32,000 nucleotides of DNA from Acidothermus cellulolyticus 11B (GCF_000015025.1 NC_008578.1:1530001-1562000), one strand, 5' to 3'; counted from the first letter of the stretch, positions 8,195 to 23,345 are shown. Numbers and translations are program-made. Notes: generated from the letters alone by a model not told the origin.

Positions 8195-8887
8195 TTACGG
8201 CAACGCGGCGATGATTTCCGCCACCGGACGCCGGGGACCGGTGAAGAACGGTGTTTCCAACCGGGTGTGCCGGCGCGCCCGGGCCTCACGCAGCCGGCGC
8301 ATGAGATCCACGATCCGGTGCAGCTCATCCGCCTCGAATGCAAGCAGGAATTCGTAATCGCCCAGTGCAAATGCGGCCACCGTGTTCGCCAGCACGTCCG
8401 GGTACTCCCGGCCCATCCGGCCATGTTCGGCGAGCATGTCCGCCCGGTACGCCGCCGGCAGCAGATACCATTCGTGGTCGCGGTTGTACGGGTAGACGCA
8501 GACATATTTCTTGGGCGCCTCACCGGCAAGAAAGGCCGGAATATGCGCCTTGTTGAATTCGGCCTCCCGATGCACGCCGATCGCCGTCCATGCCGGTTCG
8601 CACGCCTGGCCGAACGCCGTCCGGCGCAACCGTTGGTAGGCGTCCTGCAACGCCTCCGCCTCGCCGCCGATCCACCAGATGAGCACGTCAGCGTCGGCCC
8701 GGAAACCGCTGATGTCGTACACACCGCGGGTGGTGACCCCTTTGCCGGCCGCCTCCGCGAGCAGATTCTCCACTTCCGCCGAGACATGCGATCGATCCAG
8801 GTCGGCCAGGGCGCCCGGGCGGCCGCGAAGCACGGCGTACATCACATACGTTGTCTGCTGGTCTGCTGTGCTCTGCTGGGCTGTCAC
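8195..8887 (-). CDS. hemQ: coproheme decarboxylase (chlorite-dismutase-like HemQ/ChdC)
   Basis: 230-aa ORF with HemQ-like blocks (YVCVYPYNRDHEWYLL, FALGDYEFLLAFEAD). It lies directly downstream of hemY and hemE on the same strand, the canonical actinobacterial arrangement. Confidence 0.87.
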   Translation of the reverse strand: MTAQQSTADQQTTYVMYAVLRGRPGALADLDRSHVSAEVENLLAEAAGKGVTTRGVYDISGFRADADVLIWWIGGEAEALQDAYQRLRRTAFGQACEPAWTAIGVHREAEFNKAHIPAFLAGEAPKKYVCVYPYNRDHEWYLLPAAYRADMLAEHGRMGREYPDVLANTVAAFALGDYEFLLAFEADELHRIVDLMRRLREARARRHTRLETPFFTGPRRPVAEIIAALP

Positions 8888-8897
8888 AGGCCCATTC

Positions 8898-10289
8898 TCA
8901 TCCAGCCGTTCGCGACACCGACCGCGGCCCGGTCAGCGACGCCACCGCCCGCTGCGCGCCCGCGATGCACGCCGGAATGCCGACACCGTCATACGCCGCG
9001 CCGCAGAGCGCAAAACCGGGCAGCCGAGCCGCGGCGCTGCGGATGCGGGCGACACGGGCGGCATGGCCGACGTCGTACTGCGGGAGTGCGCCGGCCCACC
9101 GGGTGACGATCGAATCGATCGGTTGCGCCCGCAGCCTAACGATCGCGCCCAGGTCAGCGAGCACGCCGGCGACGAGCTCGGCGTCGTCACGCTGCAGGTC
9201 GGCGGTGTCACCGAACCGGCCGATCGAACAGCGGACGACGGCAACGTCCGAACCGGCGTACCAGGGCCATTTCACTGACGAGAACGTGGCCGCCTTGACG
9301 AGCCGCCGTTCCACCGCCGGAACCAAGAATCCGCTTCCGGCAGGCAGATTCACCTGATCCGCCGGGAAGGCCAGCGTGACGACGGCGACGCTGGCGTACT
9401 CAATCCCGGCCAGTTCAGCCGCAAGACCCCCGGCCTCCGGCCCGAGCATCCGGGCGGCCGCCGGCGCCGGCACGGCAACCACCACGCCATCCGCGTCCAC
9501 CGCCTCCGGCGCGCTCGCCGGCCCGACGTCGCACCGCCAACCCGTCGGCGTGCGCCGCAACACCCGGACCATCGCCGAGGTCCGCAGCTCGACGCCGTCC
9601 GCGCGCAACACGTCGACGAGCGCCTCGCCGAGCCGGGCCACGCCGCCGGGAATCCCGGCGAAGACTGGGTCGGCGCCACCCGGCGGCGGCAGGTCCCGCA
9701 GGCCGCGCAGGAGCGAGCCGCGATCGAGGACGTCGACCAGCTGCGGCAGGGTGGCCCGCAGGGAGAGCCGGTCGGCACGCCCGGCGTACACCCCGCCGAG
9801 GAGCGGTTCAACCAGCCGGTCGACGACACCACGGCCGAGCCGGATCCCGATCCCGCGGGCGACGGGGACGTCGTCACCGACCGGAGTCGGGGGCAGGAGG
9901 AGGTCGGCGGCTGCCCGCAGGACGGCGGTCGGCGGCACGATCCCGGTAGCGGCAAGGCTGCGAAGGCTCCGCGGCACGCCCATGACATGGCCGGCCGGTA
10001 GCGGCCGGAGCCGGCCACGGGAGTAGACCGCAGCCTGGGTGGTCGCCGGCGGAACGAGCTCGCCACCAAGACCCACCTCGCGCGCGAGATCGACCGCTTC
10101 CGGACGCCGTGCCAGCAACGCCTCAGCCCCAAGGTCCGTGCTCACACCGGCCACCTCGGCGCGGAGCAGCTTGCCGCCGAACCGTTTCGACCCTTCCAGG
10201 ACGGTGACGGAGAATCCGCGGCGCCGGGCGTAGAAGGCTGCGCTCAGCCCGGCGATGCCGCCGCCGACGACGACGATCCGCGCGGTCAC
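8898..10289 (-). CDS. hemY: coproporphyrinogen III / protoporphyrinogen oxidase (FAD-dependent)
   Basis: 463-aa ORF with an N-terminal FAD GxGxxG fold ([16 protein letters not shown]). Its start overlaps the hemE stop (10286-10289). Confidence 0.87.
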
Positions 10290-11392
10290 CCGGCCGCCTC
10301 CGCCGCAGGATGTTCCGACCCGAACCGATCCACCGCAGTCGGCACCCCGCGCGCGGACCGGTCAGCACTCCACGCGTGCACGAAGTCGACGATCGCGGCA
10401 AGCACCCCGGGGTCAGTGGACGGGAGCACCCCGTGCCCGAGATTGAAGATGTGACCGCGGGCGGCCCGACCACGGATGAGCACGTCACGGACCGCGGCTT
10501 CCAGCACCGGCCACGGCGCAAAGACAACGGCCGGGTCAAGGTTTCCCTGGACGACGGCGTCCGCGCCGATGCGCCGGGCCGCAACGTCGAGGGGAACCCG
10601 CCAGTCCACGCCGACGACGTCCGCACCCACCGCCCTAAATTGCGGCAGCAATTCTCCGGTTCCGACGCCGAAATGGATGCGCGGCACGGGCAGGCCGGCG
10701 AGGAGTTTCCCGCTGTGCGGCGCGACGTAGCGGCGGTAATCGTCGGGGTGCAGTGCACCGGCCCAGGAATCGAATACCTGGACGACGCTCACACCCGCGT
10801 CGATTTGCGCGAGGAGAAATTCGCGGGAGATATCAGCAAGCCGGTCCAACAGGGCATGCCACGTCGCCGGATCCGAGTACATGAGGGCCTTGGTCACCGC
10901 GTGGTCCCGGGACGGGCCGCCCTCGACAAGATAGCTGGCAAGGGTGAACGGCGCGCCGGCGAATCCGATCAACGGAATTCCGGCAAGCTCGCCGACGAGA
11001 AGACGCACCGCCTCGACGATCGGTGTCATCGACCCGCGGTCCAACGGGCGGATTCGAGCGACGTCCGCCGCCCTGCGGACCGGTTGGTCGAACACCGGGC
11101 CGACTCCGGGCTCGATGCGCAGGGAAACACCGCTCAACGCCAACGGCACGGTGATGTCGCTGAAGAGGATGGCGGCGTCGACTCGGTATCGGCGAACGGG
11201 CTGGAGGGTGAGCTCGACAATCAGGTCGCGGTCGAGGCAGGCCTGCAGCATGGGAGTCTCCCCCCGGGCGGCTCGGTACTCCGGCAGGGCGCGACCGGCC
11301 TGCCGCATGAACCAGACCGGTGTCACCGGCGCCGGTTCGCCACGACAGACCCGGAGCAATGCGCCGTCGCTGCGGGGGAGGACGTCAGCCAC
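10286..11392 (-). CDS. hemE: uroporphyrinogen decarboxylase
   Basis: 368-aa ORF carrying the URO-D signature [15 protein letters not shown] near the N-terminus. Confidence 0.93.
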
Positions 11393-14672: not shown

Positions 14673-15290
14673 GTGGCGAGTCGGCAACGGCCGTCGGAGC
14701 CGCCGGAGGCATTTGCGCGCGCGATCGCCGGGTTGCGCGCTGTGCGGTTGCGTCCGGAAATCCGGCTCGCCGAAGCACCGGCGCCGCAGCGGCTCGCGCC
14801 GTTCGCCCTCGCGTTCACCGGTGACATTGACGCGGCCGGCGAGGAGCTCGCCACCGGTCGGTTCGTCGTCCTGCACAATCCGGCGGGCGAAGAGACCTGG
14901 CAGGGCGACACCCGCGTCGTCGTGTACGTCCGGGCCCTGCTCGAACCGGAGATGGCCAACGATCCGTTCCTCCCCGCGGTGGCGTGGACCTGGCTCACGG
15001 AAGCCCTCACGCACCGGTTCGAGCCGGCCATGCCGGTTGCATTGGGCGGCACGGTGACCCGCGTCCTGTCGGAGTCGTTCGGGACGATGAGCAGCAGGCC
15101 GCCGAGCGCGCACGTCGAGCTTCGGGCATCGTGGACGCCGTCCGGTGACCTCACCGCTCATCTCGAGGCGTGGGGCGAAGTGCTCGCCTCGGCCGCCGGG
15201 CTGCCGCCATTGCCGCCCGGAGTAGCCGTTCTCCCCCCACCGGGCGATGCCCGGCGGACCGCCGCGACCCGGCCGCCGCGGCGGCGCTGA
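14673..15290 (+). CDS. DUF3000-family protein
   Basis: 205-aa ORF. The N-terminal region (FARAIAGLRAVRLRPEIRLAEAPAPQRLAPFALAF, FVVLHNPAGEETWQG) matches my recollection of the actinobacterial DUF3000 protein that normally sits between hemE and rnd. Confidence 0.78.
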   Translation: MASRQRPSEPPEAFARAIAGLRAVRLRPEIRLAEAPAPQRLAPFALAFTGDIDAAGEELATGRFVVLHNPAGEETWQGDTRVVVYVRALLEPEMANDPFLPAVAWTWLTEALTHRFEPAMPVALGGTVTRVLSESFGTMSSRPPSAHVELRASWTPSGDLTAHLEAWGEVLASAAGLPPLPPGVAVLPPPGDARRTAATRPPRRR

Positions 15291-15332
15291 GCCGGGTGAC
15301 GACCCGACGCCGATCCGGGTTACTGAACCGGG

Positions 15333-16436
15333 TTACGACGACGGCACGGGCTCGCTCCGCCGATTGCTCGGCGCAAGCGGCCCGCTCGGCGCCCCGCGCG
15401 GCATCCGCAGGGTGAGCGTCGTCCCGGGCTGCGGCCACGAGGTGATGTCCAGCGAACCGCCGGCCAGCCGGACCCGCTCCCGCAGCAAGCCAAGCCCGAC
15501 ATGCCGGCCGCGCTCCGGCCGGACCTGCTCCGGGTCGAAGCCCGGGCCGTCGTCGTGAACCACGGCGACCACGTGGGTTTCGTCAACCGTCAGCGAGATC
15601 CGGGCGATGTCGACGTCCGCATGCTTGACGACGTTGAGCAGCCCCTCCTGGAAGAACCGGTACACCGTCACCGCGGTGACCAACGGCAGCGGGTACGGCG
15701 AACTCGGCCACTCGATGAGAACCTCCAGCCCGTACCGCGTGCGCAGGTCGTCGCGGAGCGCAAGCACCGCCTGCGCGAGATCGCCGTCGCGGAGCGCGGG
15801 TGGTCGGGTCCGGGCCATCACCGCGCGCACTTGGTCCTCCGCCTCGGCGACCAGCTCACGGATCGTGACAAGATCGGATGGCTCCACCACCGGCGAGGTG
15901 AGCAGCGACCGCGCGAGCATCAGGGTCTGCGCCACCGTGTCATGCAGCTCGGCGGAGAGCTGACCTCGGGCGGATTCCTCCGCCTCCACCAGGCCGGAGA
16001 GCAGTTCGAACATGCCGGCACTTGCCGTCTCGGCCAACTGGCGGTGGCGGGCCGCGACGTCGTCCGAGACCCGGATCCGCAGGTGCAGCGCCTCCAATGC
16101 CCGGGCCAACTCCAGCAGCTCGGGAACAGCGCTGACCAGAACGTGGTCCTTGCTGTCGCCGACGAGCGGCGCGTGGGCGTCCTCCAGTCGATGCGTGGCG
16201 TTCTCCCGCAAATGCCGAAGGGCAACCGCGAACCGCCGCCCTGCCCGGTAGCCGACCCAGGCGCACAGCGCGGTCACGACCAGCGCAACACCAAGCGCGA
16301 GCCAGCTTGCTGCGTCCAGTCGATCAGCCGCGACGAGACCGAGCGTGACGACGATCAGCGCGGCTACTCCGCTGGCGGCCGCAAGACCACTCGTCCAGAC
16401 CGCAAGCGGAAATCCGTGTCCACGAAACGGTTTCAC
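15333..16436 (-). CDS. sensor histidine kinase, HisKA_3 (NarL-partner) class, intramembrane-sensing topology
   Basis: 367-aa ORF with two N-terminal TM helices separated by only about 8 residues (ADRLDAAS). It has the H-box LSAELHDTVAQTL and a C-terminal HATPase_c region (LLNVVKHA, DDGPGF, GLGLLRERV). The GTG start overlaps the stop of the upstream gene (GTGA, 16433-16436). Confidence 0.86.
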   Translation of the reverse strand: MKPFRGHGFPLAVWTSGLAAASGVAALIVVTLGLVAADRLDAASWLALGVALVVTALCAWVGYRAGRRFAVALRHLRENATHRLEDAHAPLVGDSKDHVLVSAVPELLELARALEALHLRIRVSDDVAARHRQLAETASAGMFELLSGLVEAEESARGQLSAELHDTVAQTLMLARSLLTSPVVEPSDLVTIRELVAEAEDQVRAVMARTRPPALRDGDLAQAVLALRDDLRTRYGLEVLIEWPSSPYPLPLVTAVTVYRFFQEGLLNVVKHADVDIARISLTVDETHVVAVVHDDGPGFDPEQVRPERGRHVGLGLLRERVRLAGGSLDITSWPQPGTTLTLRMPRGAPSGPLAPSNRRSEPVPSS

Positions 16437-17920
16437 CGCACTGATTGTGTCTGCTCATTGTCCGGCTGCGCCGCCTCCGGCAGCCGGATTCCGGGTGCCA
16501 CGCCGTCCGGCTTGGCGGTTCCCGGCAGCAGGCCGGTCGTGGTCCATTCGCCTTCGCGGCGGACCGGTGCACTGGGAGTCGCGTCCAGTTCGCGCAACGC
16601 CGGATCGGCGGCCAACGCAATGGCACCGAGCAGCGACGCAACCGCCCGTTCCACCGCGTGCAATTCCTCGACGATCTCCCGGACCGCATCGTTGCTGCCG
16701 GTGCTGGCCAGCCGCGCAAGCCGGGTCGCCGACTCGCGGAGCATGTCGAGCGCCGGCGCGGTGTCGGCTCCAAGGTCGCCGAGGCTGCGGGCGGCCTGGT
16801 CCGCCGCGTGAGCCCGGGCCATCGCGCGGTCGCGGGCAGCCGCGAGATCGGCGACGGAGAGCCAGGATTTCGCCTGGCCCACCAGCACCTTGACCAGAGC
16901 AACTTCACGACGTCCGAAGCTCGAGCTCCCCTCGGCCCGTCGCGCGATCATGACGGCCAACGGTCGGTCGTGCTTGCCGATGACGGCTGAGCAGAACGGA
17001 CGGCCCTCCTCAGAGCCGACCAACACGCCCCGGGCGCCCAGTGCGCGCAAGGCCCACGGCTGGTCGAAGGCGTGCGGGTCCGGTCGGCGCTGGGTTTGTC
17101 CGGACTCGTCACCGGTGTAGACGACCGGGCCTTCATGCTCCAGGACGACCAGCTCGACATCGGCACCGCCGAGCACCCGGGCGGCCGCGGTGAGGACGAC
17201 TCGGGCGGAGATGTCCACCGAATGCGTGACCGCCTGCTCTTGACCGCGGGCGAGCTCGGCGAAGAGCCGGGCCTCGGCGCTCTTGGACGTCTGCTCGTCG
17301 AAGGCCACCCAGAGGAGGAAGACCGGCACGAGCAGCCCGAGGAGACCGAACGGTGCGTGGACCATGAGCCACGAGGCGAGGAGACCGACGCTCGTCGTGC
17401 CGGCGGCGTGGACGGCGTACACGCCCGCGTCTTCGAAGATCATGGCTCGGAGACTCTGCCGGCCCATGATCGACAGCGGGATCGCCGACATCACTTGGTC
17501 GGTCATCCACCAGATGGCCATCGCCGCTGCACAGGCAACAACACCGCCGTGCAGGTGCACCGCCGTGTAGGCGGCGAGCGTGCCGGTAAGGAAGTACTGG
17601 GCAAGGTTGTAGAAAACCTTGAGCGGTGAGGACCGCTGCCGCAGGAGTGCCGGGAAGAGACCGAGGCAGGTCGCCGGGACGATCCACCAACCGGGGGCGA
17701 GGAGGAAGGCGCCGGCAAGAACGCCCTCGGTCATCGTGAAGGTCACGAGCATGCGGGCGATGGTGATGCTGATCCGCAGGATGTTCGCGGCAGCGACGAG
17801 GATCACCAGCAGCGGCAACGCCCACAGTGCGGGATGGCCCCAATGCGTCGCCGCGGCGAGCGGCAGGCTGGCCCCGATCGCCAGAATGGCGACGAGCCGG
17901 AGACGCCAGGTTGGGCTCAT
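16433..17920 (-). CDS. polytopic membrane protein (about 8 TM helices) with cytoplasmic GAF-like domain and helical tail; putative accessory sensor
   Basis: 495-aa ORF. Residues 1-207 are hydrophobic helices. Residues about 232-356 have a GAF-like pattern (ARVVLTAAARVLGGADVELVVL ... RPLAVMIARRAEGSSSFGRREVALVKVLVGQA). Residues 357-435 are predicted helical and include EELHAVERAVASLL. No kinase ATPase domain is present. ATGA overlap with the protease stop (17917-17920). Confidence 0.7.
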   Translation of the reverse strand: MSPTWRLRLVAILAIGASLPLAAATHWGHPALWALPLLVILVAAANILRISITIARMLVTFTMTEGVLAGAFLLAPGWWIVPATCLGLFPALLRQRSSPLKVFYNLAQYFLTGTLAAYTAVHLHGGVVACAAAMAIWWMTDQVMSAIPLSIMGRQSLRAMIFEDAGVYAVHAAGTTSVGLLASWLMVHAPFGLLGLLVPVFLLWVAFDEQTSKSAEARLFAELARGQEQAVTHSVDISARVVLTAAARVLGGADVELVVLEHEGPVVYTGDESGQTQRRPDPHAFDQPWALRALGARGVLVGSEEGRPFCSAVIGKHDRPLAVMIARRAEGSSSFGRREVALVKVLVGQAKSWLSVADLAAARDRAMARAHAADQAARSLGDLGADTAPALDMLRESATRLARLASTGSNDAVREIVEELHAVERAVASLLGAIALAADPALRELDATPSAPVRREGEWTTTGLLPGTAKPDGVAPGIRLPEAAQPDNEQTQSVR

Positions 17921-19674
17921 GATCCGTCACCCCAGCTCACAGCGTCCCATATCTGGGCGCCCCACATCCGCGCATCCCAGACATCAGCGCCCCACATCCG
18001 CGCACCCCACATACGGGCGCCCCACATCCGCGCATCCCACGAGCCGGCGCCCCACATCCGCGCACCCCACATCCGGGCCTCCCAGGAATCGGCGCCCCAC
18101 ATCCGCGCGTCCCAGGAATCGGCACCCCACATACGGGCACCCCACATCCGCGCATCCCACGAGTCGACGCCCCACATCCGCGCACCCCACATCCGGGCGC
18201 CCCACATCCGGGCGAGCGGCCAGACCGGCGCCCAGTAGGAGACCGTCGAGAACCACTGCCGCAGATTGAGACCCTGCTCACCGGTGTTGAGCGGACGCGC
18301 GTCCCCGTCGCCCGGGACACCCACGAGTCCCTGGCCGTCGGCGTACCCGGGCTGAATCGGCGTGGCGGCGTTGCGGATGGCGGACTTGACCACCCACGGG
18401 TTGGCATGCGGGTGCGCTTGCAGGTACAGCGCCGCGAGACCGCTGACGATTGCGGTGGACTGGCTGGTGCCGGAGCCGCGGAACAGCCCATTGGGTTGGC
18501 GCCCATTGGGGAATTGTTGCGCAATCACCGTGTCTGCCGGCATTTCGCCCAGGATGTTGACACCTGCGGCGACGACGTCCGGCTTGACAATGCCGTCGAC
18601 GTTGCCATAGCCGCTGAAGCTGGCGACCACCGGGGTGTCGCCGGTGGTGTCCGCGGCGCCGACGGTCAAGGCATCCGGCGAGAAACCGGGATCACCCACC
18701 ACACCGGGGGTATTGCCGGAAGCCACGACGACGGTGACTCCGGCGTACCGGGTCAGGGTGACGGCGAAATTCAGCGGATCGATGCCGTAGCCGGACGTCG
18801 GCGGCGTCACGCTCATCGACAGGTTGGCCACGTCGACCGAATTCGCGTGGGTGGCGACCCAGTTGAGTCCGGCGATGACCGCCGCGAGCGAGCTCCGGCC
18901 GGTGTCGTCGGCGACCTTGACGACGTCAACGGTCGCCCCGGGGGCCACGCCGAGCGCCGTACCGTTCGTGCCATCAACCACGCCGCCGGCGATCAGCGAT
19001 GCCATGAAGGTGCCGTGGCCGTAGCCGTCTGTGAACGTGCCGTTCTCGACAACGTGACCACCGCGGGTGTTCAGCCCGGAGGTGTCAACGGCGTCCACGA
19101 GCCGACCGGAGGCGCGATCAAGCGCCGGCGTGTCGCTGACGCCGGTGTCGATCAGGGCGACCGTGACACCGGCGCCGGCCCCCGGCTGGCCGGCCGGGGC
19201 GCCAAGCGTCGTCGGCGCGAGAACGCCGTCAACCGGCGAACTGCCGGAGTCACCGGACGTAGCGCCGCTGCTGCCGGAGTCGCTGGACGTATCGGCGGCC
19301 CCGCTGCTGCCGGACGAGCTCTGGTCGGTGCCGCCGCCCTGGGCGCCTCCGTCATGACCGCCGCCTCTGCCCCCACGGCCGTAGGCAAACCCGGCGACGT
19401 CAACGGCAACGTTGGGCGCGACACCGAGGACCCCCGGCTGCTGCGCCAGTGCGGTGAGCGCCGCCGTGTCGCCGGTGACGACCTCGACGTGGACGGCGTC
19501 CAGCAGAGCCTGCAGGTGCACACCCGGAACGAGCACGGGCGCGGTCCCCGCGAGAGCGACGACCGCTTGCTGCTGAGCGGTTTCGGCTGCGGCCGGGGTC
19601 GCCGCCACCATGCCGAGCGCTGCTGCCAGTGTGGCCCCGGCGGCCAGCCATCTGCGGAGTGCCTGCACGATCAT
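17917..19674 (-). CDS. secreted subtilisin-like serine protease (peptidase S8) with C-terminal Trp-pentapeptide repeat tail
   Basis: Catalytic contexts are VTVALIDTGV (Asp), GYGHGTFMASLIAGG (His), VVVASGNTPG (oxyanion Asn) and GSGTSQSTAIVSG (Ser). The start is placed at ATG 19674, with purine-rich GAGGGGA just upstream. The N-terminus MIVQALRRWLAAGATLAAALGMVAATPAAA/ETAQ looks like a Sec or Tat signal. A propeptide-like segment is followed by a Gly/Ser-rich linker (about 19234-19383). The ORF-track start (TTG 19983) is rejected. Confidence 0.85.
   Translation of the reverse strand: MIVQALRRWLAAGATLAAALGMVAATPAAAETAQQQAVVALAGTAPVLVPGVHLQALLDAVHVEVVTGDTAALTALAQQPGVLGVAPNVAVDVAGFAYGRGGRGGGHDGGAQGGGTDQSSSGSSGAADTSSDSGSSGATSGDSGSSPVDGVLAPTTLGAPAGQPGAGAGVTVALIDTGVSDTPALDRASGRLVDAVDTSGLNTRGGHVVENGTFTDGYGHGTFMASLIAGGVVDGTNGTALGVAPGATVDVVKVADDTGRSSLAAVIAGLNWVATHANSVDVANLSMSVTPPTSGYGIDPLNFAVTLTRYAGVTVVVASGNTPGVVGDPGFSPDALTVGAADTTGDTPVVASFSGYGNVDGIVKPDVVAAGVNILGEMPADTVIAQQFPNGRQPNGLFRGSGTSQSTAIVSGLAALYLQAHPHANPWVVKSAIRNAATPIQPGYADGQGLVGVPGDGDARPLNTGEQGLNLRQWFSTVSYWAPVWPLARMWGARMWGARMWGVDSWDARMWGARMWGADSWDARMWGADSWEARMWGARMWGAGSWDARMWGARMWGARMWGADVWDARMWGAQIWDAVSWGDGS
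17929..18213 (-). repeat. 19 contiguous in-frame 15-nt units encoding ARMWG (x12) and VDSWD/ADSWD/ADSWE/AGSWD/ADVWD/AQIWD/AVSWG
   Basis: Read directly from the sequence (units such as gccccacatccgcgc on the + strand). Trp (cca on the + strand) is present in every unit. The units differ at synonymous positions. The array ends 9 nt before the stop codon. Confidence 0.95.
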
Positions 19675-19898
19675 CCGTCCCCTCGCGTCTCGTCGACGTG
19701 GAGCCCGGTCGACTCCCTGCTGGAGGTGTCGGCATCCGCGGCATCCAACTGTTGCAGGAGGCAGCAAACCGCCCGATCGGAGCAAGCCGGCAGGACGAGC
19801 GGCCGTATCGATACCCCGAAACAGCCCAAGAACGGGACGAAACTGGATAATCTGACGCCACTCGCGCTGGGCGGTTGGCACGGCGGCTCGCTGCGGCC

Positions 19899-19983
19899 TC
19901 GCCCGGCCGAGCACCGCGGCAAGGAACGCCCGTGGCGAGACGGCGTTCGCCACTATGTGTCGCCCGGCCGAGCACCGCGGCAA
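19899..19983. repeat. perfect 24-bp direct repeat pair TCGCCCGGCCGAGCACCGCGGCAA (19899-19922 and 19960-19983); candidate operator
   Basis: Both copies are identical and lie 61 bp apart start to start, inside the divergent intergenic region between the protease operon and the response-regulator gene. Coordinates are confirmed by two ORF-track entries that both begin MPRCSAGR at 19922 and 19983. Confidence 0.9.
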
Positions 19984-20118
19984 ATGACCGACAGCCGGTT
20001 ACCGCGAATGCAGCACGCAAGGGTCGGCGAATGCTTCAGCCCGCGGCCGCCGCATCCGATGACTCCGGGTGACACCGGGTCGGGTAAGCCGACCTCGACG
20101 AGCAGAGGAGGGACCAGG

Positions 20119-20796
20119 GTGACGGCGTTGGCCGAGCACGTGCCGCCCCAGCCGGGGAACTCCGCGGGTTTCACCGCAATGGTGGTCGACGACCACCCGT
20201 TGGTCCGCGAATCCATGGTGAGCCGGCTCACCGCGATGGGGGCGCGGGAGGTGATAGAAGCGGCCAGTTGCGCCGAGGCCAGGGCCCGGGCCCGGTCGGT
20301 CGGACCGTGCGACGTCTGCATCGTGGACGTCGGCCTCCCCGACGGTTCAGGGCTCGATTTGATCGCTGAACTGCGGGCCGCGGGATGGCCCCGGCTCGTC
20401 GTCCTCTCCGCCGCTGACGACCCGTACTCGGTGCGCGCAGCCTTTGTCGCGGGCGCGCAGGGGTATCTGCTGAAATCCGCCTCGCCGGTGGTGGTCACCG
20501 ACGGGGTGCGCCGAGTGCTGGACGGCGGTGTGTACGCCGACCCCGCCGTGGCCTCCCTCCTGGCGGCTGGGCTGCGCAACAACGCCAGCAACGAAGGCAT
20601 CGGTGACCTCTCCAGCCGGGAGATCGAGGTACTCCGGTTGGTCGCCGACGGTCGGTCCAACAAGGAAATCGGGGACCAGCTCGGACTCTCGGCACTGACC
20701 GTCAAGAGCCACCTGGCCCGCATCGCCCGCAAGCTCGGCACTGGGGACCGCGCCGAGATGGTGGCGCTCGCGATGCGCGCCGGCATCATTCGGTGA
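20119..20796 (+). CDS. response regulator, NarL/LuxR family (REC + HTH)
   Basis: Receiver motifs are VVDDHPLV, CIVDVGLPDGSG (phospho-Asp context) and YLLKS. The C-terminal LuxR HTH is LSSREIEVLRLVADGRSNKEIGDQLGLSALTVKSHLARI. The GTG at 20119 is preceded by AGAGGAGGGA. The ATG at 20179 is an alternative start. Upstream in-frame codons have poor GC3 and are rejected. Confidence 0.88.
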   Translation: MTALAEHVPPQPGNSAGFTAMVVDDHPLVRESMVSRLTAMGAREVIEAASCAEARARARSVGPCDVCIVDVGLPDGSGLDLIAELRAAGWPRLVVLSAADDPYSVRAAFVAGAQGYLLKSASPVVVTDGVRRVLDGGVYADPAVASLLAAGLRNNASNEGIGDLSSREIEVLRLVADGRSNKEIGDQLGLSALTVKSHLARIARKLGTGDRAEMVALAMRAGIIR

Positions 20797-20860
20797 GTGC
20801 CGGCGTCATCTGGCGCGCGCGACAGCCTCGCGGCATCATTCGGTGAGTCCCGGCGTCATC
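20781..20860. repeat. 30-bp direct duplication (1 mismatch) of the response-regulator 3' end including its stop codon
   Basis: CGGCATCATTCGGTGAGTGCCGGCGTCATC at 20781-20810 and CGGCATCATTCGGTGAGTCCCGGCGTCATC at 20831-20860. The first copy contains the real TGA (20794-20796). Confidence 0.9.
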
Positions 20861-20961
20861 GGATACGCGGGTTTACATCCTGACCCAAACCAAGGTGTCC
20901 GATCGGTTGAGCACGCGCCGCGCGGCCGCCTTCCCACCGGCCGGCTCGTTACCGTTGGGTC

Positions 20962-22212
20962 GTGTCCGACTCTCCACTCGTTGCGAAGGTTCGACCGCAT
21001 CTGAGTCTGCGGGACGGTACGCCGGATGTGGTCGACACACCGGAGAAGCTGGCCGCTGCAGTCCGCGCACTGGCGGCGGCCGACGGACCGGTCGCCGTCG
21101 ACGCCGAGCGGGCCTCGGCCTACCGGTACGGGCATCGGGCCTATCTCGTCCAACTGCGCCGGCCGGGTGCAGGCACGTTCCTCATTGACCCGCTCCCCTT
21201 CGCCAACCTGCGGCCGGTGCATGAGGCGCTCTCGACAGCCGAGTGGATCGTACACGCCGCAGCACAGGATTTGCCGTGCCTCGCTGAACTCGGCCTGCGG
21301 CCCGCTCGATTGTTTGACACCGAGCTCGCCGCCCGGCTTGCCGGCTATCCCCGGGTTGGGCTTGCCGCGATGGTGGAGGAGCTTCTCGGTTTCCGGCTGA
21401 ACAAGGACCACGCCCGGGTCGATTGGTCACGGCGCCCCTTACCGGAATCGTGGTTGCGCTACGCGGCACTCGACGTCGAAGTTCTCGTTGAACTAAGGGA
21501 GATTTTGCATACCGAGCTGCAGCGTCAAGGAAAACTGCGTTGGGCGGTCGAGGAATTCGAGCATGTGCGTACCGCGCCGCCTCCGTCGTCACCGGTGGAA
21601 CGGTGGCGGCGGGTCTCGGGAATTCATCAGGTTCGGGGACGGCGTCAGCTGGCCGTCGTCCGGGAACTTTGGCATGCCCGTGACCGTCGTGCCCGCGAAC
21701 TGGATATGTCGCCCGGCAAAGTGCTCTCAGACTCGGCAATCATCCGCGCCGCGACCGGAAAATTCCGGAGCAAGAAAGAACTCGCCGCAACCCCGGAATT
21801 CTCCGCCCGGCCGGCACGGGAATTCCTCGACGAGTGGTGGGACGCCATCGGGCGGGCGACGGCGTGCGGTGAGGCGGAACTTCCCGCGCCGACGCCGAAT
21901 ATTGACGGTCCGCCGCCCGCGCATCGCTGGTCGGAGGCGAGCCCGGACGCCGCCGCCCGGCTTTCGGTCGCGAAAACCGTCGTCGCTGCTCTCGCCGACG
22001 AACACCGGCTGCCGGCCGAGAATCTGCTGGCACCGGACGTCGTCCGCCGGCTCGCCTGGCAGCCACCGCATTCGCTGGATGATCACGCTGTCGCGACCGC
22101 GTTACGGCGGCTCGGCGCCCGGCCTTGGCAGGTCGGCCTGACCGCAGAACCGCTCGCCAAGGCGCTGCGACGTGTCGAGCTGCATGAGCTGAGGCATTCA
22201 ACCTCGCCGTAG
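20962..22212 (+). CDS. rnd: ribonuclease D (DEDD 3'-5' exonuclease + HRDC)
   Basis: 416-aa ORF with DEDDy motifs in PVAVDAERASAYRY, IVHAAAQDLPCL and RYAALDVEVL. An HRDC-like segment follows (VLSDSAIIRAA...). Confidence 0.87.
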   Translation: MSDSPLVAKVRPHLSLRDGTPDVVDTPEKLAAAVRALAAADGPVAVDAERASAYRYGHRAYLVQLRRPGAGTFLIDPLPFANLRPVHEALSTAEWIVHAAAQDLPCLAELGLRPARLFDTELAARLAGYPRVGLAAMVEELLGFRLNKDHARVDWSRRPLPESWLRYAALDVEVLVELREILHTELQRQGKLRWAVEEFEHVRTAPPPSSPVERWRRVSGIHQVRGRRQLAVVRELWHARDRRARELDMSPGKVLSDSAIIRAATGKFRSKKELAATPEFSARPAREFLDEWWDAIGRATACGEAELPAPTPNIDGPPPAHRWSEASPDAAARLSVAKTVVAALADEHRLPAENLLAPDVVRRLAWQPPHSLDDHAVATALRRLGARPWQVGLTAEPLAKALRRVELHELRHSTSP

Positions 22213-22469: not shown

Positions 22470-23345
22470 GTGGCGCCAGCACGTAATCAGTCCGACGCCG
22501 AGAGTTCGGCGTCGTCTGTCGCACTGCGGCAATGCCTGCTCGCGGTGAGCGTCACCGCCGACATCGACCTCACCCCGACCGACGACGGAGCCGTCATTGC
22601 GGGCGTGCCTGTGGTGCGGCTGACATTCTCCGAAGTGGCCGAGGCGATCCGCAACGCGGCGCCGCAGACCGCCCTGGCTCGTCGCAGATTGCTCCGCTGG
22701 ATAAGGCTCCGGCGGGCTCTTGCGGAGCGGAGCATCGACGAGCTCGCCGAATCAGCCCGCCCGGTTGGCCTGCCGATCGGACACGAATTGCACCCCGGGC
22801 CGGACTGGGTGTGCGAGCACATCCTCGGCGGATGCCTCGACCTCGGGATCGGCATCGTCGGACTGGACGACGCCGATCCGCAGCGGGTTGTCGTTGTCCC
22901 ACCCGGGGTGTTCCGCGCCACGAACATTGACACCACGGAGTGGTGGCGGGCGGCGTACGAGTATCTGGAGAACATGGGCGCATTGGCGACCGTGCGGTGG
23001 CGCCGGGAACCACGGCGGCCCCTCCACCCGATGGGCGATTGCGACGTGGTGACGCTGCTCGGCTCTGCGGTGTTCCGGGGTGCCATCGCGGCCGACGCGG
23101 GCGGGATGCGCGCCGTCGCAGCCCCCATGCGCCATCGCGGTTGGCTTGAGTTGTCGCGGATCGATCCGGCGTTTGTGCGCGCCGCCGCCATGCTCACCGA
23201 CGACGAGAATCGCGGCTTCGTCCGCCCGGTTCTCGTCACCGCCGATGAAGTCTGCCTTGCCGGGGACGGCGACGGCGTACGGATCGTGCTGCGGGATCCC
23301 GCCGCCCGCGACGAGCGGTGGCTGCGCGACGTCCTGTATCACTAA
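22470..23345 (+). CDS. hypothetical protein (no domain recognised)
   Basis: 291-aa ORF. The GTG is preceded by a very strong SD (GGAGGAGGGG, 22457-22466). Codon usage appears consistent with its neighbours. I recognise no motif. Confidence 0.6.
   Translation: MAPARNQSDAESSASSVALRQCLLAVSVTADIDLTPTDDGAVIAGVPVVRLTFSEVAEAIRNAAPQTALARRRLLRWIRLRRALAERSIDELAESARPVGLPIGHELHPGPDWVCEHILGGCLDLGIGIVGLDDADPQRVVVVPPGVFRATNIDTTEWWRAAYEYLENMGALATVRWRREPRRPLHPMGDCDVVTLLGSAVFRGAIAADAGGMRAVAAPMRHRGWLELSRIDPAFVRAAAMLTDDENRGFVRPVLVTADEVCLAGDGDGVRIVLRDPAARDERWLRDVLYH

Follow-up and report, generated by a model that had tools for sequence, protein, structure and literature searches.

We analysed a 32-kb window of Acidothermus cellulolyticus 11B DNA (coordinates are counted from its first letter), in which four genes lie between a DUF3000 gene and rnd, coding for RNase D (Table 1). 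One of them codes for a response regulator of the NarL/LuxR family. The other three, transcribed in the opposite direction, code for an S8 protease, a membrane protein and a histidine kinase. An earlier, sequence-only reading of this DNA had described the divergent regulator across its 444-bp spacer and the chaining of the three minus-strand genes by 4-nt overlaps, and both descriptions were confirmed: the protease and membrane protein genes share the ATGA at 17920-17917, and the membrane protein and kinase genes share the GTGA at 16436-16433. The same reading could not assign the arrangement to any named system. By sequence and position the regulator appears to be an orthologue of the Streptomyces regulator WhiI, which provides such a name, and we consider it probable that the locus is a complete, phosphorylation-competent, kinase-linked WhiI system with a split sensor.

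Table 1. Genes and sequence features between the DUF3000 gene and rnd in the A. cellulolyticus window
Feature	Position	Strand	Description
DUF3000 gene	14673-15290	+	Left boundary; DUF3000 E 2.3e-67
HisKA_3/HATPase histidine kinase	15333-16436	-	367 aa; HATPase_c and HisKA_3
Membrane protein	16433-17920	-	495 aa; stand-alone, sensor-like
S8 protease	17917-19674	-	585 aa from ATG 19674; Peptidase_S8 E 3.3e-37
Trp-repeat tail of protease	17917-18234	-	Residues 481-585; 15-nt tandem repeat
Intergenic spacer protease/regulator	19675-20118		444 bp; divergent genes on either side
Conserved 16-bp box TGCTCCGATCGGGCGG	19769-19784	- (operon strand)	Predicted regulator site; 110 nt upstream of protease ATG
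Sigma-28 (WhiG/FliA)-type promoter of regulator gene	20035-20062	+	TTCA-N16-TCCGATGA; sequence match
NarL/LuxR-family response regulator	20119-20796	+	225 aa from GTG 20119; REC and GerE
rnd (RNase D)	20962-22212	+	Right boundary

The gene order of the window is repeated in two A. cellulolyticus metagenome-assembled genomes (MAGs), and it extends well beyond the species. A profile scan restricted to one genome per species yielded 80 loci, from MAGs labelled Acidothermaceae, Frankiaceae-like or "Mycobacteriales", and tblastn with the window proteins gave the same order in all 80: rnd(-) regulator(-) [S8(+)] membrane protein(+) kinase(+) DUF3000(-). In many of them dxs was found beyond these genes. 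The gene combination singled out by the sequence-only reading is consequently conserved in other genomes. Both ends of the arrangement are visible in 68 of these loci, which we refer to as informative. Regulator, membrane protein and kinase occur together in every one of them, while the protease is found between regulator and membrane protein in 53 and is absent from 15, where the regulator is directly divergent from the membrane protein across a spacer of 258-589 bp. From these counts, the regulator, the membrane protein and the kinase make up the invariant core, and the protease is a common accessory. The 4-nt overlap is kept at the protease/membrane protein junction in 38/57 loci and at the membrane protein/kinase junction in 40/75, and because both recur in relatives we regard them as a conserved feature and not as chance. 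Homologues of the membrane protein number in the hundreds, nearly all of them metagenomic and labelled Acidothermaceae, Frankiaceae/Frankiales or "Mycobacteriales"; the distant ones are all metagenomic, with no cultured model besides Acidothermus among them.

This conservation also bears on the proposal that a four-gene block had been inserted into conserved synteny. The proposal holds only in part. Streptomyces-type contigs (see below) lack the kinase, the membrane protein and the protease. A block of four genes is not sustained, as the regulator is present there regardless, composition is flat across the locus, 80 genomes have the genes at the same site and the protease is optional. Recent horizontal insertion was considered and rejected, since there is no GC or skew anomaly with respect to the flanks and the position is the same in the 80 genomes. 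Judged by these comparisons, the arrangement is old and fixed. In mycobacteria, DUF3000 presumably adjoins rnd directly (Rv2680/Rv2681).

The regulator has Response_reg (E 8e-18) and GerE (E 5e-19) Pfam domains and shows approximately 80% identity across the clade, being far better conserved than the neighbouring genes. We suspected WhiI because of this strong conservation, the conserved element upstream of the gene and the fact that whiI of Streptomyces coelicolor (SCO6029) adjoins SCO6028, which is listed as "putative ribonuclease." The ends of Streptomyces venezuelae WhiI were taken from published primers (MSVLLEQPASL... and ...RTGIIH; PMC4125116) and used for a codon-degenerate scan of a metagenome collection, in which 51 contigs were found to carry a 220-residue WhiI with exactly these ends. 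Against this recovered Streptomyces-type WhiI, the A. cellulolyticus regulator has 52% identity over 213 residues (E 2e-61), rising to about 80% in the DNA-binding domain, where the helix-turn-helix is near-identical (LSALTVKSHLARIARKLGTGDRA.MVA.A.R.GII). Both proteins also have an N-terminal extension of about 20 residues (MTALAEH... in the regulator, MSVLLEQ... in WhiI). All other relatives are weaker: the best PDB match, among structures that include DevR as one of the closest, reaches an E value of only ~1e-23, and the best NCBIfam match (5e-32) is below cut-offs. None of the four proteins has an NCBIfam equivalog above the curated cut-offs. Gene order agrees with the similarity. Approximately 20 Streptomyces-type contigs have the order DUF3000(+)-whiI(+)-rnd(+), with the regulator of the window in the same slot, and on the Streptomyces-type whiI contigs nothing matched the protease, membrane protein or kinase. 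On position and sequence, the regulator is thus assigned as an orthologue of Streptomyces WhiI (SCO6029 / vnz_28820), differing from it in being encoded divergently from a kinase, a putative sensor and a protease.

The promoter region offers a second resemblance to whiI. A conserved element, T(A/T)CAG-N15-nCCGA(T/A)nA, lies upstream of the regulator gene. The consensus for sigma-28/WhiG promoters has been given as T(A/C)AA-N16-GCCGATAA or CTCA-N16-17-GCCGAACT (preprint PMC12871210). With the pattern T[AT][CA]A-N15-17-nCCGA, allowed up to 220 nt upstream of the regulator, we obtained matches in 58/67 loci, compared to 6.3 +/- 2.3 (maximum, 14) in shuffled sequences. Streptomyces-type whiI genes have a TAAA-N16-GCCGAAGA promoter in the same placement, 68-112 nt upstream. 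Within 15000-21100 we found neither sigma-70-type promoters nor intrinsic terminators. A predicted promoter of the sigma-28 type points to a motility or developmental programme and, because Acidothermus has a WhiG orthologue and flagellar genes (PMC4255298), an association of the module with a motility, dispersal or growth-phase programme is more likely than one with envelope stress. A side observation is a tandem 10-bp direct repeat (TGACTCCGGG / TGACACCGGG, 20060-20079, plus strand) that overlaps both the expected start site and the -10 element and could be a putative autoregulatory site.

On the other side of the spacer, the relatives share a 16-bp box upstream of the operon. It reads T(G/A)CTCC(G/A)NN(C/T)GGG(G/C)GA on the operon strand, and its median distance from the first operon gene is 133 nt. 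Its A. cellulolyticus copy is the single match in the window. The box closely resembles the Group II box bound by BldM-WhiI in Streptomyces (TGnnCCGnnCGGGTGA; PMC4125116), with one half similar to the BldM half-site, and its four unconstrained positions come out as G, G/C, G and A, three of them in agreement with the Group II box. The core CCC[GA]NN[CT]GGAG[CT]A was present in 27/67 spacers against 0.2 in dinucleotide shuffles, and a palindrome of WhiI half-sites, TGNNCCGNNCGGNNCA (up to 1 mismatch), in 24/67 against 2.2 in shuffles, statistics that are optimistic, as the pattern was refined on the same data. The bare BldM half-site CGGGTGA was not enriched in the spacers (6/67 versus 2.1). 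Upstream of the Streptomyces-type whiI, where the operon is also absent, no BldM-type or Group II boxes were found. This fits the box as a predicted site through which the regulator would control the divergent operon. An Rfam scan of the spacer gave no relevant RNA element. The spacer also contains a perfect 24-nt direct repeat, TCGCCCGGCCGAGCACCGCGGCAA, at 19899-19922 and 19960-19983 (plus strand, 61 bp apart), with the 16-bp box on one side of it and the sigma-28-type promoter on the other. Allowing up to 3 mismatches, the window has no further copies, and none of 131 related loci contains an exact copy of the 20-nt core of the repeat.

The kinase consists of two N-terminal transmembrane helices, a juxtamembrane helix, a dimerization and histidine phosphotransfer (DHp) domain and a catalytic ATPase domain. 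HATPase_c is recognised with an E value of 3.7e-11, and HisKA_3 scores 18.7 bits, which is under the gathering score. The H-box LSAELHDTVAQTL (ELHDTVAQ, including the phosphatase motif DxxxQ) is invariant, as are the H, N, G1 and G2 boxes in 74 orthologues. In HisKA_3 kinases, DxxxQ is associated with bifunctional activity, and as the motif is present in the H-box the enzyme is probably both a kinase and a phosphatase. Hydropathy and inspection place the two helices at residues ~11-37 and 45-63, leaving between them a linker, DRLDAAS, of approximately 7 residues, close to the 8 estimated earlier; the orthologous kinases have the same two hydrophobic stretches close together. With such a short linker and no extracellular domain, the kinase is by its sequence of the intramembrane-sensing type. 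Its closest solved structures are DesK and VraS.

WhiI is described in the literature as an orphan with a degenerate phosphorylation pocket, confined to complex sporulating actinomycetes; it is essential for sporulation in Streptomyces, has neither a known kinase nor a known signal and functions exclusively as a heterodimer with BldM. Our literature search returned no report of a kinase partner for any WhiI orthologue and no earlier description of a kinase-linked WhiI system. In a 2026 preprint about WhiG regulons, where histidine kinases go unmentioned, WhiI falls into a cluster that is mostly Streptomycetaceae. In the clade studied here, the pocket residues D24, D25, D70, S97 and K119 are invariant or nearly so in 68 regulator sequences, whereas the Streptomyces-type WhiI has V/A at the Asp pair, of which it lacks one residue, and has lost the Lys through a deletion, matching the published pocket defects. 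The A. cellulolyticus protein, a non-sporulating thermophile's counterpart of a sporulation regulator, is therefore by its sequence a WhiI orthologue but not an "atypical orphan," with an apparently intact pocket and a kinase gene in every locus.

Regulator and kinase might still be neighbours and not partners, the WhiI orthologue acting unphosphorylated (e.g., as a BldM-like heterodimer) and the kinase and membrane protein serving another regulator or mainly the protease. Streptomyces WhiI and BldM do function without phosphorylation, the pocket of BldM is intact and yet dispensable according to the literature, and the BldM-like half of the conserved box would suit a heterodimer. We nevertheless consider this quite improbable, as five pocket residues have stayed invariant in 68 divergent orthologues, in contrast to the decayed receiver of Streptomyces WhiI, the kinase retains all its catalytic motifs, and no informative locus has the regulator, the membrane protein or the kinase without the other two.

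The third core component is the membrane protein. The sequence-only reading had labelled it as a transmembrane protein with a GAF domain, a label without support from Pfam, as the window protein gives no Pfam match of any kind, GAF included, but one that is recovered at the level of fold. An AlphaFold2 model built on 27 homologues (mean predicted local distance difference test [pLDDT], 81) comprises a polytopic helical domain (residues ~1-213), an alpha/beta domain (~235-330), three long helices labelled as coiled coil (337-446) and a disordered tail. The alpha/beta region has a pLDDT of ~90, and most of the best 50 Foldseek PDB matches listed are GAF domains or proteins that contain one, DosS/DevS among them, with probability of ~1.0, E values from 2e-3 to 4e-2 and, for single-domain targets, target-normalised TM-scores of ~0.5-0.67. 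According to the model, then, the protein contains a GAF fold. C310 and an FGRRE motif in this domain are almost invariant. In addition, the motif WTTTG (residues 459-463; 16532-16546, minus strand) is invariant in 27/27 aligned members within the otherwise variable, predicted-disordered tail, and it may be a short docking motif. The C-terminal EELHAVERAV was considered as a pseudo-DHp or HisKA_3 H-box and rejected: hhalign against the cytoplasmic region of the kinase gave a probability of 0.02, the His of the motif is H or Y across the family, and a PDB profile search produced only a coiled-coil artefact.

The helical domain leads to MASE9 (PF20972). Two members of the family, P0014 and P0035, score 26.6 and 29.8 bits with the Pfam model (cut-off, 24.3), and the family profile matches the N-terminal 260-350 residues of MASE9-PAS-HisKA-HATPase kinases with E values of 1e-19 to 1e-27. 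Distant relatives such as P0355, P0360 and P0373 are complete kinases of this architecture and match Pfam MASE9, so the membrane domain is MASE9-like and probably corresponds to a recognised sensor module of kinases that is here detached. In those kinases sensing and transmission reside in one polypeptide with a HisKA domain, in contrast to the separate GAF-fold protein and the HisKA_3 kinase with its own two helices that we find here. It is plausible from these similarities that the membrane GAF protein is the likely sensing partner of the kinase.

The membrane protein could have other roles, for example as a substrate or anchor of the protease, as a scaffold, or as an independent GAF signalling protein that is simply co-expressed. 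It has no recognisable output domain, its C-terminal helices have no profile similarity to the kinase, and the invariant WTTTG of its tail would agree with such roles. We judge them very improbable, given that the protein stays with the kinase in the 15 loci without protease, that MASE9 is the N-terminal sensor module of true kinases and that in most loci the kinase gene begins in an overlap with the stop codon of the membrane protein.

In kind, the locus is a three-component system built on an intramembrane-type kinase, with an accessory protein of a new type. LiaFSR, SaePQRS, BceRS-AB and EsrISR are systems of this kind, the first two being the nearest analogues, and they have in common with this locus a NarL-type regulator, a membrane protein encoded next door and a HisKA_3 kinase in which only a few residues link the two transmembrane helices. 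They differ in the accessory component, which is LiaF (toast-rack), SaeP/SaeQ or an ABC transporter instead of a MASE9-GAF-coiled-coil protein, and the regulator gene of this locus is divergent and has a predicted sigma-28-type promoter. DosS/DosT-DosR (DevS-DevR) likewise have a NarL-type regulator and a HisKA_3 kinase preceded by a GAF domain; sequence similarity is low, with 9-17% identity to our membrane protein for the fold matches listed. DosS and DosT are soluble, and their GAF is fused to the kinase and binds haem.

These similarities are also where the envelope-stress interpretation of the sequence-only reading has to be weighed. According to it, a module of the LiaFSR, MprAB-PepD or CssRS-HtrA type was inserted between DUF3000 and rnd, in which envelope damage is sensed by the membrane GAF protein and the protease serves as output and also as source of the signal. 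In its favour, very few residues separate the two helices of the kinase, the kinase weakly resembles LiaS, VraS and DesK, and the overlaps suggest that a secreted protease is co-transcribed and translationally coupled with it. MprAB-PepD and CssRS-HtrA are also two-component systems beside a secreted serine protease. Their proteases are of the HtrA type (S1C with PDZ) and their regulators of the OmpR type, whereas here the protease is an S8 enzyme with a Trp tail, is encoded by the leading gene of the operon and can be dispensed with by some of the clade (absent in 15/68 loci), and the regulator is NarL-type. None of the four proteins has a LiaF-like (DUF2154/toast-rack) or PspC domain or belongs to the HtrA/PDZ proteases. 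Moreover, the arrangement is fixed at its site in 80 species genomes without a shift in base composition, the regulator is classed as a WhiI orthologue, and its predicted promoter is of the sigma-28 and not the extracytoplasmic function (ECF) type. We found no specific support for the envelope-sensing framing, from which the sigma-28/WhiG-type promoter points away, and consider it unlikely.

The protease itself is, by sequence, an ordinary subtilase that is predicted to be secreted. It has a signal-peptide-like N-terminus, an I9-like propeptide (residues 35-93), a Gly/Ser linker, a catalytic domain (~160-450) with an intact D/H/S triad, and the Trp tail; AlphaFold2 predicts the propeptide and the catalytic domain confidently, and the closest solved structures are 9ues and 3afg (E ~5e-24). 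The best NCBIfam match is to the mycosins, the S8 proteases of type VII secretion (TIGR03921, E 1.3e-27), at 96.8, far below the cut-off of 278.75. The enzyme differs from mycosins in that no hydrophobic segment or membrane anchor was found at its C-terminus, and no mycosin or other ESX genes were recognised in the annotated part of the window. The Trp repeat noticed in the sequence-only reading is real: a 15-nt tandem repeat (Tandem Repeats Finder score, 200-306) codes for ~21 units of W-[GD]-A-[RD]-[MS]. It is a trait of the family, as 118/120 homologues have W spaced by five (W-x-[AS]-R-x) with very different filler residues. In two A. cellulolyticus MAGs the tail is shorter and more uniform (proteins of 565 and 560 residues versus 585), a difference that may come from genuine variation of the repeat or from its collapse during assembly. 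The tail scores 19.2 bits with Pfam Pentapeptide (PF00805), under the cut-off of 20.2, and has no confident AlphaFold2 fold (pLDDT < 35); we make no claim that it folds as a pentapeptide-repeat beta-helix. In one metagenomic homologue, P0241 (686 residues), the C-terminal part of the S8 domain and the full-length membrane protein are found in a single open reading frame (ORF), either as a real fusion or by a frameshift at the 4-nt overlap.

The genes around the locus complete the window. To the left of DUF3000 are hemQ-hemY-hemE, an EamA transporter and an ABC transporter, and to the right of rnd are an ORF without Pfam match, dxs and aconitase. The haem-synthesis cluster (8195-11392, minus strand) codes for a chlorite-dismutase-like protein of the HemQ type, a protoporphyrinogen oxidase and a uroporphyrinogen decarboxylase, and the EamA and ABC transporters lie between it and DUF3000. 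By tblastn, the ABC ATPase has matches in few of the related loci, and from this scarcity it does not appear to be part of the module. The ORF between rnd and dxs (291 residues; 22470-23345, plus strand) has tblastn matches with 44-73% identity at the same place in many loci of the clade and was undetected in the Streptomyces-type contigs.

Returning to the kinase-linked WhiI system that we favour, its working can be pictured as follows. An RNA polymerase with a sigma factor of the sigma-28 family (WhiG/FliA) would transcribe the regulator gene from the promoter in Table 1, a function suggested by the conserved match. The divergent operon, the anatomy of which can be read directly from the DNA, would supply the secreted S8 protease, the MASE9-GAF-coiled-coil protein and the near loop-less kinase in translationally coupled form. 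As the kinase alone would be unable to sense outside the membrane, the MASE9-GAF protein would act as a detached sensor that sets the balance between kinase and phosphatase, a role proposed because of the strict co-occurrence of both genes and the existence of fused MASE9 kinases. The kinase would then phosphorylate the regulator at Asp70, as the invariant pocket and the adjacency of the genes suggest. The phosphorylated regulator, alone or with a BldM-like partner, would bind the 16-bp box ~110 nt upstream of the protease gene and feed back on the operon, which we propose because the motif is conserved and resembles the BldM-WhiI box. The protease would be a frequent but dispensable output or accessory. 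In Streptomyces, the three-gene operon is absent and the WhiI receiver is degenerate.

Several points weigh against this reading. Using reciprocal best hits, Chandra and Chater reported WhiI to be absent from Frankia and from simple motile actinobacteria containing WhiG (PMC4255298). The link to MASE9 passes through relatives, since the membrane protein of the window has no Pfam match and only 4/27 family members match MASE9 (E <= 0.01), and the box counts carry the optimism of a pattern refined on its own data. Phosphotransfer, the interaction between membrane protein and kinase, DNA binding and transcription are all deduced from sequence. Finally, seven loci without protease (L057, L058, L062, L067, L070, L077 and L078) have no recognisable sigma-28 motif under our pattern. 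They form a subclade with long spacers between regulator and membrane protein (412-516 bp). In five of them (all but L057 and L062) the box pattern is matched by TACCCCGAACGGAGTA, at a distance of ~150-165 nt upstream of the regulator. Regulation may be different in this subclade.

A possible history, which we put forward tentatively and hold at somewhat less than even chances, is that WhiI was ancestrally controlled by phosphorylation, with the kinase and the detached MASE9-GAF sensor encoded alongside and the whole under a sigma-28 dispersal programme. Streptomyces would have lost the sensor, the kinase and the protease, its receiver would have decayed and WhiI would have been rewired via BldM, while the Acidothermus/Frankiales-like clade would keep the ancestral input; the alternative would be a gain of these genes in this clade. 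On the history proposed, a signal of the same kind as the GAF/MASE9 ligand would formerly have gated this step in the development of actinobacteria.

The assignment corrects the view of WhiI as confined to complex sporulating actinomycetes, and the locus may show the signal input that is missing from Streptomyces WhiI. For the input from WhiG to WhiI outside Streptomyces, it offers candidate proteins and a candidate ligand-binding domain. It would also illustrate the division of a sensor kinase into a sensing (MASE9-GAF) and a transmitting (near loop-less kinase) polypeptide, and it gives a concrete case on which to test the evolution of pseudo-receivers from functional two-component systems. 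The system can be tested in a cultured organism, A. cellulolyticus.

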